Origin: Escherichia coli
Lineage (GTDB): Bacteria; Pseudomonadota; Gammaproteobacteria; Enterobacterales; Enterobacteriaceae
Direction: 5' to 3' (one strand)
NCBI RefSeq assembly: GCF_002854065.1
Contig: NZ_CP024147.1
DNA: 64,000 nt
Shown piece by piece: positions 4,016-17,864 of this stretch (positions within the stretch are counted from its first letter, which is position 1; the number at the start of each line of letters is the position of its first letter). A program made the translations under genes and the position numbers. The notes under the pieces are model-generated. The model was given only the letters and a program-made list of their open reading frames with translations. It did no database searches and was not told the DNA's origin.

Positions 4016-4752
4016 TGCGTCGTTTATTGTCTGTCGCACCTGTCCTTCTCTGGCTGATTACGCCCCTCGCCTTCGCGCAACTGCCGGGTATCACCAGCCA
4101 GCCGCTGCCTGGCGGTGGACAAAGCTGGTCGCTCCCGGTGCAGACGCTGGTGTTCATCACCTCGTTGACGTTTATTCCGGCAATTTTACTGATGATGACC
4201 AGTTTCACCCGCATCATCATTGTTTTTGGTTTATTGCGTAACGCGCTGGGAACACCCTCCGCGCCACCTAACCAGGTATTGCTGGGGCTGGCACTGTTTT
4301 TGACCTTTTTTATTATGTCACCGGTGATCGACAAAATTTATGTCGATGCGTACCAGCCATTCAGCGAAGAGAAAATATCAATGCAGGAGGCGCTGGAAAA
4401 AGGGGCGCAGCCGCTGCGTGAGTTTATGCTGCGTCAGACCCGTGAGGCAGATTTAGGGTTGTTTGCCAGACTGGCGAATACCGGCCCGTTGCAGGGACCT
4501 GAAGCCGTGCCGATGCGCATTTTGCTCCCGGCCTACGTGACCAGCGAGTTGAAAACCGCATTTCAGATAGGCTTCACGATTTTCATCCCTTTTTTGATTA
4601 TCGACCTGGTGATAGCCAGCGTGTTGATGGCATTGGGGATGATGATGGTTCCCCCCGCCACCATTGCTCTGCCCTTTAAACTGATGCTGTTTGTACTGGT
4701 GGATGGCTGGCAATTGCTTGTCGGTTCGCTGGCGCAGAGCTTTTACAGCTAG
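4015..4752 (+). CDS. fliP: Flagellar export apparatus protein FliP
   Basis: 245 aa polytopic membrane protein with signal peptide, recognised as FliP. Confidence 0.9.
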
Positions 4753-6113: not shown

Positions 6114-6737
6114 ATGTCAACGATTATTATGGATTTATGTAGTTACACCCGACTAGGTTTAACCGGGTATCTGTTGAGTAGAGGGGTTAAAAAAAGAGAA
6201 ATCAACGACATTGAAACCGTTGATGACCTTGCCATAGCTTGTGATTCACAGCGCCCTTCAGTGGTGTTTATTAATGAGGACTGTTTCATCCATGATGCTT
6301 CTAACAGTCAGCACATCAAGCACATCATTAATCAACATCCCAATACGTTATTTATCGTTTTTATGGCAATTGCCAATGTTCATTTTGATGAATATCTATT
6401 GGTCAGAAAAAATTTATTGATCAGTTCTAAATCGATTAAACCGGAATCTCTCGACGATATCCTTGGCGATATTCTGAAAAAAGAGACAACGATAACCTCT
6501 TTTTTAAATATGCCGACGTTATCATTGAGCCGAACCGAATCGAGTATGTTGCGAATGTGGATGGCAGGTCAGGGAACCATTCAAATCTCTGACCAAATGA
6601 ATATCAAAGCCAAGACCGTTTCATCGCATAAAGGTAATATTAAACGTAAGATCAAAACGCATAATAAACAGGTTATCTACCATGTCGTCCGACTGACGGA
6701 TAATGTGACTAATGGTATTTTTGTCAACATGCGCTAA
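6114..6737 (+). CDS. rcsA: Capsule synthesis regulator RcsA (LuxR-type auxiliary regulator)
   Basis: 207 aa ORF recognised as RcsA. Confidence 0.9.
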
Positions 6738-6780
6738 CACATTCTGACTGGTGGTTTCCCACCAGTCAGGCTGAATAAGA

Positions 6781-7059
<279 letters not shown>

Positions 7060-7131
7060 CTATACTTAAAAGATGCCAGGCGGACTTAACGACTGGCGGC
7101 AACAACAGAGTAACGGTTGCGAGGAAAGATG

Positions 7132-7359
7132 ATGAAAACCGCAAAAGAGTACAGCGATACCGCAAAACGTGAGGTCAGCGTCGATGTCGATGCCCTGCTG
7201 GCGGCGATCAATGAAATTAGCGAAAGCGAAGTTCATCGCAGCCAGAACGATTCTGAACACGTTAGCGTCGATGGACGTGAATATCATACATGGCGTGAAT
7301 TGGCGGATGCCTTCGAACTGGATATTCATGACTTCAGCGTCTCTGAAGTGAATCGTTGA
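7132..7359 (+). CDS. yodD: Small stress-induced protein YodD
   Basis: 75 aa from internal ATG (MKTAKEYSDTAKREV…); SD GAGGAAAG lies upstream. Confidence 0.8.
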   Translation: MKTAKEYSDTAKREVSVDVDALLAAINEISESEVHRSQNDSEHVSVDGREYHTWRELADAFELDIHDFSVSEVNR

Positions 7360-7372
7360 ATGCACAATAAAA

Positions 7373-7459
7373 AAATCCCGACCCTGAGGGGGTCGGGATG
7401 AAACTTGCTTAAGCAAGAAGCACTTAAAAAATTCGTTACACCAGGAAATCTGATGTGTT
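7373..7459 (-). ncRNA. dsrA: DsrA small regulatory RNA (Hfq-dependent; activates rpoS translation, represses hns)
   Basis: Reverse complement reads AACACATCAGATTTCCTGGTGTAACGAATTTTTTAAGTGCTTCTTGCTTAAGCAAGTTTCATCCCGACCCCCTCAGGGTCGGGATTT, matching DsrA as I recall it, including the terminal GC hairpin plus U-tract. Confidence 0.9.
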
Positions 7460-7535
7460 CATCACCTTATCCGCAATTTTTTTCGCTGACAAGAAAATAT
7501 TCGCCATATGAATGATTAACGCTACTTATGAATAG

Positions 7536-10165
<2,630 letters not shown>

Positions 10166-15650: not shown

Positions 15651-15860
15651 GACTCAATCATTTTTTGAACAAATAGATAAATTTTGCGCAACGGCAGTGA
15701 ATACAGGAAAAATCGTTTTGAGCGATTTTATTTATCTTTGATATCGGCTTTATTAATTCATTCAATCAATATATTAGCACTGATTACAATTATACCTTTT
15801 TATTATTCTGTGTCATGATGCCTCCGTTATTAGCCTTTTATCGTCTTGTTTATATTTTTT

Positions 15861-15890
15861 GGGCCGGCATGATGCCGGCTTTTTTTTATG
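15861..15890 (+). terminator. Orphan intrinsic-terminator-like hairpin (GGGCCGGCATGATGCCGGC plus T8)
   Basis: Perfect GC-rich stem followed by TTTTTTTT on the plus strand; no plus-strand gene is annotated upstream. Confidence 0.4.
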
Positions 15891-16199
15891 CCTTCATTAA
15901 TGTGCGCGTGATCACACCAGCCGTTTAGCGCATCAATCATTGATACCCCCTATCTTTCCGCTCAACTCATAACATATTGATATGCATTTATAATTTTCAT
16001 GAATATTTATATTTAGAATTCATAATTATGAATTATATTAAATAGATTAGAAACATTTTGAAATCTTTTAAATATATTTGTTACATGTAGTCCTTAAAAT
16101 AAAATGAACTTCATAGAATAGTATCCAAATGTGCTTTTTTTTTGGATAACGGCACTTATTGATATATTCATGAAGATTATAATCACAAGGGAATACATA

Positions 16200-17273
16200 A
16201 TGAAAAGAAAAGTTCTGGCAATGCTGGTCCCGGCGTTATTAGTTGCTGGCGCAGCAAATGCGGCTGAAATTTATAATAAAGATGGCAATAAAGTTGATTT
16301 CTACGGCAAGATGGTTGGCGAACGCATCTGGTCAAATACTGATGATAATAACAGCGAAAACGAAGATACCTCCTATGCTCGTTTCGGTGTTAAAGGTGAA
16401 ACCCAAATCACCAGCGAACTGACTGGTTTTGGTCAGTTTGAATACAACCTCGACGCCAGCAAGCCCGAAGGTGAAAACCAAGAAAAAACCCGTTTAACCT
16501 TCGCCGGTTTGAAATATAACGAGTTAGGATCATTTGACTATGGCCGTAACTACGGTGTTGCTTATGATGCCGCAGCTTATACCGATATGTTAGTTGAATG
16601 GGGTGGCGATTCCTGGGCTTCCGCTGACAACTTCATGAATGGTCGTACCAACGGTGTTGCAACCTACCGTAACTATGATTTCTTTGGCCTGGTTGATGGT
16701 CTTGATTTTGCGATTCAGTACCAAGGCAAAAACAGCAACCGTAGCACTAAGAAACAAAATGGTGACGGCTATGCGTTGTCTGTAGACTATAACATCAATG
16801 GTTTTGGTATCGTTGGTGCATATAGCAAATCTGATCGTACTAATGAACAAGCTAGTGACGGCTACGGTGATAACGCTGAAGTGTGGTCATTAGCAGCCAA
16901 GTATGATGCAAATAATATCTATGCAGCAATGATGTACGGTGAAACCCGCAACATGACCGTTTTGGCTAATGATCATTTTGCAAATAAAACCCAAAACTTT
17001 GAAGCTGTTGTACAGTATCAGTTCGACTTCGGTTTACGTCCGTCTTTAGGCTACGTATATTCCAAAGGCAAAGATCTTTATGCTCGTGATGGACATAAAG
17101 GTGTTGATGCTGACCGCGTAAATTATATCGAAGTTGGTACCTGGTACTACTTCAATAAGAACATGAACGTCTACACAGCATACAAATTCAACATGCTGGA
17201 TAAAGATGACGCCGCCATTACTGGCGCAGCAGCTGATGACCAGTTTGCAGTTGGTATCGTCTACCAGTTCTAA
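16200..17273 (+). CDS. yedS: OmpC/OmpF-family general porin, apparently intact YedS
   Basis: 358 aa from [21 protein letters not shown] (signal peptide), then [16 protein letters not shown]… and C-terminal …VGIVYQF typical of enterobacterial porins; SD AAGGGA upstream. Confidence 0.85.
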
Positions 17274-17315: not shown

Positions 17316-17352
17316 AGCCTGAGTTCGTCCCTCATCGAACTCAGGCTTTTTT
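17316..17352 (+). terminator. Rho-independent terminator downstream of yedS
   Basis: AGCCTGAGTTCG…CGAACTCAGGCT hairpin followed by TTTTTTATT. Confidence 0.7.
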
Positions 17353-17864
17353 ATTGGCATTTCATCTCCATCTGCGGCACACGCAATTGCCGAAGCATAT
17401 CGATACAGCACCTTACCCTGCCCCTCCTGGCACAATAACATCAACCAGCTACTCTTCAAGCTAACACCCAAATGCATTTCTTTATAAATTAATCCGTAAC
17501 AAACACGCTTCCCATATAGAAATATTTGCAAAAATAGTGCATGAAATAAGCTTTTTCTCTACCAATCCGCGATATAAATATTCATCAGCACCACAATATT
17601 CCACAGCACTAAATCTCTCCCCGCCACCCCGTACCTCTGATAATGGTCTAAAATCATTGAGGCCACTTGCGACGACGTTACTCAATAAGGAAAATTTGGC
17701 GTGAATAATATTCAACACCAGTGCAGCATCATCATTACATACTTACACCCGCCGACTACCGCTTTCGATATATTGACTCAATTTTCCAGCCTGGTTAAAA
17801 ATAGCGACCAGCTCAGTCGCAAATATAGTGACTACCCTAACTAAGCAACAATAAGGAATACACT

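Follow-up and report, generated by a model that had tools for sequence, protein, structure and literature searches.

The porin gene yedS (b4496) of Escherichia coli K-12 carries a pseudogene annotation, and one in-frame TAG and one frameshift interrupt its translation. The stretch of E. coli DNA analyzed here (64,000 nucleotides; hereafter the window) carries an unbroken porin gene at the corresponding position, which raises the question of what kind of gene it is: the K-12 gene before it was damaged, a porin of a different type, or a reading frame that is intact in name only. An initial annotation had taken it for an intact, OmpC-family yedS, and had rightly described the K-12 gene as a fragmented pseudogene. 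The analysis presented here indicates that the window gene is very probably an intact allele of an OmpK35/OmpF-like porin class (class I below) at a conserved Escherichia position, drpB-rseX-[porin]-hchA, which is occupied by yedS in K-12.

An intact general porin gene at the yedS position

The open reading frame (16200–17273, + strand) extends from an ATG start to a TAA stop over 358 codons. Because this count includes the stop codon, the porin precursor has 357 aa; the protein is complete, as had been proposed, but not the 358 residues long that it was said to be. A Shine-Dalgarno sequence, AAGGGAA, can be read 7 nt before the ATG (16187–16193, +), and the same CDS is called by PGAP in E. 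coli CUWW06, where the locus is 100% identical (WP_032281084.1, “porin”). Pfam Porin_1 (PF00267) was matched along its full length (residues 27–357 against model positions 1–337 of 337; E = 5e-122; 407.9 bits, cut-off 23.7), and alignment with OmpK35, OmpF and orthologues from other genera identified no frameshift or premature stop in the window porin. Judged by this domain match, the protein belongs with the general bacterial porins of the OmpF/OmpC/PhoE type. The surrounding gene order, vsr-dcm-yedJ-drpB-rseX-[porin]-hchA-hprS-hprR, is that of the K-12 yedS position, and the marks of a yedS-locus porin, namely its place between drpB-rseX and hchA and the shared promoter region, signal peptide and terminator, are all present. 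With a complete reading frame, a full-length Porin_1 domain and neighbors that match K-12, the proposal of an intact gene at the yedS locus was confirmed.

Both ends of the protein are as initially described, with a signal peptide and a C-terminal YQF. The signal peptide is cleavable and ends in AxA, and the mature chain begins AEIYNK (family pattern AE(I/V)YNK) at residue 22, from which the mature chains of solved porins align. The mature protein of 336 aa is Sec-exported. The C-terminus reads ...GIVYQF and thereby includes the terminal Phe, the family’s C-terminal aromatic for outer-membrane assembly. The porin signature that had also been claimed fits at all positions except the last, which is T and not V in the pattern that we take to define it (PROSITE-type, [LIVMFYW]-x2-G-x2-Y-x-F-x-K-x2-[SN]-[STAV]-[LIVMFYW]-V); solved OmpK35 deviates there too (A), which makes the pattern too strict to settle family membership. 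The residues of the constriction zone, a basic cluster (K16, R42, R82 and R132) and the acidic L3 residues D113 and E117 (OmpF numbering), are all kept together with the GG turn of loop 3, and loop L3 reads VEWGG rather than PEFGG, as it does in solved OmpK35. Since the protein shares 67% full-length identity with solved OmpK35, a 16-stranded trimeric barrel can be inferred, and on the simplest reading the gene would encode a functional, non-specific trimeric channel of the OmpF/OmpK35 type.

Downstream of the gene, the terminator of its own that had been placed at 17316–17352 was recovered as a stem followed by a T-run (Table 1), and this terminator is identical in K-12. The sRNA gene rseX, annotated at the same place in K-12, likewise has its own terminator (stem 15861–15881). 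It lies 313 nt upstream of the porin start, another instance of a porin-regulating sRNA encoded beside a porin gene. The upstream region of the E. fergusonii locus contains a divergent rseX-like stretch (about 4600–4700 of that locus sequence). Between its yedS-type porin and hchA (6663–9688 of the same sequence), E. fergusonii also has a TrkH-family gene and a second porin gene, whose 369-aa product begins with a signal peptide of NmpC/OmpD-like sequence (MKKLTVAVSAVAAS...); neither gene is present at the E. coli locus.

Table 1. Coordinates of the porin gene and of observed or candidate elements around it in the window.
Feature	Position	Strand	Basis
rseX sRNA gene	15797–15886	+	Rfam RF01401, 99 bits (gathering score 50), full model 1–94
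Candidate CRP-like palindrome TGTGC-N6-TCACA, TGTGCGCGTGATCACA	15901–15916		Read from sequence; right after the rseX terminator
Four putative OmpR-box-like half-sites, 10-bp phased: GAAACATTTT GAAATCTTTT AAATATATTT GTTACATGTA	16050–16089	+	Putative
Candidate promoter TTGTTA-16-TAAAAT	16078–16105	+	Consensus scan; such sites not above chance number
Candidate alternative -10, TAGAAT	16114–16119	+	Within invariant block CATAGAATAGTAT, four-genus footprint
Signal-peptide coding part, 21 aa	16200–16262	+	Alignment with solved mature porins begins at residue 22
Mature porin, 336 aa and stop, class I (OmpK35-like) allele	16263–17273	+	Pfam Porin_1; OmpK35 best solved match
Candidate MicF site, +81 to +121, codons 27–41	16280–16320	+	RNAduplex, MicF nt 1–32, dG -21.9
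Recombinant patch, about aa 213–326	16838–17177	+	Informative sites match the O121:H19-type 357-aa allele
Intrinsic terminator	17316–17353	+	12-bp stem (7 GC pairs) 17316–17347, 8-nt loop, then TTTTTAT

The mature protein is not that of K-12 yedS

Nucleotide identity between the window and K-12 is 97.4% upstream of the gene, 100% in the signal-peptide part, 66.4% in the mature part (with 139 gapped columns) and 97.9% over the 3' end and downstream DNA. The near-identity stops at the signal-peptide cleavage site and resumes from the last four codons. At the protein level, the window porin shares 67% of its residues with Klebsiella OmpK35, 61% with OmpF, 60% with a reconstructed K-12 YedS and 58% with OmpC. 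OmpF and OmpC, at 65% identity, are about as distant from each other as the window porin is from K-12 YedS. When compared to solved structures, the window protein scored highest with OmpK35 (505 bits), followed by OmpF (401), PhoE (378) and OmpC (about 340), whereas K-12 YedS scored highest with OmpK37 (494) and then with OmpK36/OmpC (410–450). Its NCBIfam scores lie below the cut-offs for OmpF (452 against 583; NF007446, equivalog), OmpC (429.1 against 484; NF007841) and PhoE (426 against 599). By these curated thresholds and by its alignments, the window porin is neither OmpC, OmpF nor PhoE, nor is it a K-12-type YedS. Of the initial “OmpC-family” label, the assignment to general diffusion porins can be kept, but the protein falls below the OmpC cut-off and its nearest relatives are of the OmpK35/OmpF type.

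Three allele classes share the locus in E. coli

The distribution of the alleles was surveyed by megablast of the mature parts alone against 5426 complete E. coli genomes. Window-like sequences (class I) were found at ≥90% identity in about 1650 genomes, although only 5 of the 5426 reached ≥99%. A second class (class II, 352 aa; e.g., F11 and IAI39) was present at ≥95% identity in about 1500 genomes, and a third (class III, K-12/OmpS1-like) at ≥80% coverage in 1662. There are roughly three deeply divergent allele classes at the locus, each in about one third of complete genomes. Their boundaries are sharp, with nucleotide identities of 97% upstream, 66–70% in the mature part and 96–98% downstream, and the signal-peptide coding part is 100% identical across all three.

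Among twelve sampled genomes, five (K-12, rl0044, CX08, LAM_HS and E2386) have loci disrupted by stops, frameshifts or insertion sequences, a proportion which suggests that the gene is dispensable. Intact loci were found in O121:H19 FWSEC0006 (357 aa), in 2014C-3307 and WP4-S17 (371 aa) and in GPEC484 and F11 (352 aa), and an intact class III example of 395 aa occupies the same locus. The locus is a frequent IS target: in four strains unrelated to each other, the porin gene is cut short or bordered by IS30, IS2, IS3-family and IS1 insertions. Intact versions of 357, 371, 352 and 395 aa are each carried on at least 1000 public contigs, so that an intact porin is the rule and K-12 is among the exceptions; the suggestion that intactness sets this strain apart was not upheld. 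The exact window protein occurs on 139 public contigs. PGAP names the K-12-type allele “ompC: porin OmpC” and the other two classes merely “porin”. Many RefSeq E. coli therefore carry two genes called ompC, a nomenclature that hides alleles of one locus. The name “outer membrane protein S1” is also in use for some class III proteins of E. coli.

That porin genes of E. coli recombine and are under diversifying selection is well established. It is conceivable, though we hold it only tentatively and with more doubt than conviction, that the locus is a long-lived polymorphism of three porin cassettes that are exchanged by recombination and kept by selection from phages, colicins or immunity. Under such a model the cassettes (58–68% at the amino-acid level) would differ from each other as the paralogues OmpF, OmpC and PhoE do. 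Each cassette would be bounded exactly by the cleavage site of the signal peptide and by the final four codons, and exchange would proceed through these universally conserved porin sequences. A literature search of incomplete coverage returned no description of a three-class cassette polymorphism. An origin of the classes from tandem paralogues was also considered and rejected, as the second porin of E. fergusonii has a signal peptide of the NmpC/OmpD type and is only 63% identical to K-12 YedS.

Descent and mosaic structure of the window allele

The corresponding position downstream of yedJ is taken by class I-like porins in E. fergusonii (85% aa identity to the window porin), Citrobacter (80%), Enterobacter hormaechei (80%) and the K. 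oxytoca group (73%). Because this gradient tracks phylogeny, class I looks like a vertically inherited resident of the locus and not like a recent import. Within class I, informative sites divide the window allele into three segments: from 16125 to 16814 all 38 of 38 agree with the 371-aa sub-allele, from 16838 to 17177 all 128 of 128 agree with the O121:H19-type 357-aa sub-allele, and from 17189 to 17232 all 11 of 11 agree with the 371-aa sub-allele again. The window allele, as these sites show, arose by recombination between two class I sub-alleles and consists of three segments. The exchanged patch spans the stretch in which the 371-aa allele has a 14-residue insertion and holds most of the variable, indel-rich stretches; on the OmpF loop map it presumably corresponds to external loops L5–L7. 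In terms of the cassette model, the window allele would represent exchange at a finer scale, with a single internal segment swapped.

Upstream region and candidate regulators

The 200 bp before the porin gene have a GC content of 21%. A search for OmpR boxes in the interval 16000–16199 had been proposed in the initial annotation, and four OmpR-box-like half-sites can indeed be read there (Table 1). The 11-mer ACATTTTGAAA is identical to the core of the C1 box region of ompC, which in K-12 lies 176 nt before the ompC start codon (ATG); it occurs once in the window against 0.06 occurrences expected by chance. Across E. coli, E. fergusonii, Citrobacter and E. hormaechei, GAAAyATTTTGnAAT and TTACA do not vary, whereas the DNA around them diverges. 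Three invariant blocks stand out in this four-genus alignment: the OmpR-box-like block, CATAGAATAGTAT with its good -10 hexamer TAGAAT, and the Shine-Dalgarno sequence. This layout is that of OmpR-activated porin promoters, from which we infer OmpR binding. A run of nine T lies between the candidate promoter and the start codon (16137–16145); it has eight T in K-12 and is shorter or interrupted in other genera. For the CRP-like palindrome, a 2026 preprint (PMC12871828) lists the K-12 counterpart (2033766, “yedS”) among CRP footprints obtained in vitro.

Two precedents bear on silencing. The neighboring rseX is repressed by H-NS (PMC8313858), and Salmonella OmpS1 is a quiescent porin that is silenced by H-NS/StpA and relieved by LeuO (PMC4264507). 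The combination of conserved OmpR-box-like repeats and AT-rich upstream DNA suggests a silenced, OmpS1-style porin here as well, and the window porin is probably quiescent in the same manner and silent under laboratory conditions. OmpS1 itself is said, after Oropeza et al. 1999, to depend on OmpR. By analogy and from the sequence features, control of the window porin may involve OmpR, H-NS and LeuO: H-NS/StpA would silence the very AT-rich DNA ahead of the gene, and transcription would need OmpR on the conserved phased boxes at 16050–16089, possibly together with LeuO or CRP. Once expressed, the porin would offer small hydrophilic solutes, beta-lactams among them, a non-specific channel, and its variable surface loops would be displayed to phages, colicins and antibodies.

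Pairing with sRNAs was assessed by duplex folding. Warner et al. 2013 reportedly described a functional YedS that affects carbapenem resistance and is under MicF-dependent control. In the control, MicF nt 1–33 paired with ompF (-50 to +40) at dG -27.1 (z = -5.9), and with the same MicF segment no pairing was detected at the start of the window porin (-50 to +40; dG -10.2, z = +0.4). Full-length duplex folding carried no information, since even the control fell short of significance. A MicF site within the coding sequence (Table 1) may be considered a weak lead only: its energy was reached by 1 of 100 mononucleotide shuffles of the region from -100 to +300, and the other allele classes give similar energies. 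Pairing of RseX with the neighboring porin mRNA was no better than chance.

Alternative explanations for the intact gene

If the window gene were the un-mutated ancestor of the K-12 pseudogene, it should encode the K-12 protein, only free of the stop and the frameshift. The shared locus, the identical signal peptide and a promoter region and terminator that are 97–98% identical to K-12 agree with this, and it is what the initial annotation had supposed. However, the mature part agrees at only 66% of nucleotides and 60% of residues and has numerous indels in its variable regions, the window porin has its nearest solved structure in OmpK35 and K-12 YedS in OmpK37/OmpC, and real intact counterparts of K-12 YedS exist at the same locus (395–397 aa, 86–97% identical). 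These alignments refute a direct ancestry, given that a few mutations cannot turn the window allele into the K-12 allele, and we assign it next to no probability. Scarcely more credible is a cassette newly imported from another genus such as Klebsiella or Enterobacter in place of the native yedS. The best solved match is a Klebsiella protein, OmpK35, the CDS has a GC content (about 40–46%) below that of its neighbors, and the boundaries fall on sequences conserved in all porins, all of which would suit an import. The closest relatives are nevertheless E. coli alleles (96% and 90–94% aa), found in about 1650 of 5426 genomes, and they are followed by E. fergusonii at the same locus (85%), Citrobacter and Enterobacter (80%) and only then by OmpK35 (67%), in the order of the phylogeny; moreover, OmpK35 itself resides at the asnS-aspC (ompF) locus.

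A further possibility concerns function and not origin, namely that the reading frame is intact yet a relic, never meaningfully expressed and decaying toward the pseudogene state seen in K-12. Insertion sequences, frameshifts or stops in K-12, rl0044, CX08, LAM_HS and E2386 are compatible with decay, the upstream DNA is very AT-rich, as is typical of silenced genes, and homologues have been described as “quiescent” porins (PMC4264507). Against this stand the conservation of every pore-lining and assembly residue, the retention of the gene at the same position across at least five genera, the conserved promoter and Shine-Dalgarno footprints, and the shuffling of variable stretches by recombination, which fits selection on an exposed protein. 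In addition, a surface proteome of an O26:H11 strain included a porin “50% homologous to K-12 YedS” (PMC9731836), putatively from the yedS locus; if it is encoded there, it hints that non-K-12-type alleles can be expressed. On balance we consider a relic unlikely and retain the reading of an intact class I allele, which is orthologous by position to the porins of E. fergusonii, Citrobacter, Enterobacter and K. oxytoca.

Implications

In addition to OmpC, OmpF and PhoE, the strain has a further potential general porin, which is of the OmpK35/OmpF type with a wide channel. Were it de-repressed, more beta-lactams and carbapenems could enter cells deficient in ompC/ompF, and phages or colicins could use it as a receptor. 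The name yedS covers at least three non-equivalent proteins, and treating them as one gene would lead to wrong predictions of resistance or receptors. Nothing here is unexpected for E. coli, as class I is carried by many wild E. coli. The finding itself is already known, since public databases contain this very protein along with thousands of close relatives, and a report of a functional YedS has reportedly been published. The more interesting by-product is the putative three-class cassette polymorphism, which would fit the pattern known for surface proteins of E. coli, namely recombination together with diversifying selection.

Comparison with known porins

The closest characterized protein is K. 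pneumoniae OmpK35 (PDB 9hn1, 5o77), which aligns end to end with the window porin (505 bits, 67% aa) and shares its unusual L3 motif LVEWGGD, a common 13-residue block and loops of similar length. In contrast, one third of the residues differ, and OmpK35 is encoded at a locus of its own (pncB-asnS-[porin]-aspC, i.e., ompF) rather than beside drpB. OmpK35 is also a major expressed porin, whereas the window porin is probably quiescent. Despite its place at the ompF locus, OmpK35 is nearer to the class I porins of the yedS locus (67%) than to E. coli OmpF (60%), for which gene conversion between loci or mis-assigned orthology are possibilities.

K-12 YedS and its intact relatives of 395–397 aa have in common with the window porin their position, an identical signal-peptide coding sequence and flanks of 97–98% identity, but they agree with it at only 60% of residues, are about 40 aa longer in the variable regions, have PEFGG in loop L3 and are nearest to OmpK37/OmpC. 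The E. coli porins OmpF, OmpC and PhoE belong to the same Pfam family and have the same pore-lining residues and N- and C-terminal motifs; they differ by their other loci, by identities of 58–61% and by NCBIfam cut-offs that the window porin does not reach. Salmonella OmpS1 serves as a regulatory model only, likened through its published regulation. The E. coli proteins named after it belong to the K-12-type class, which the porin studied in Salmonella probably resembles, yet the upstream DNA is common to all classes.
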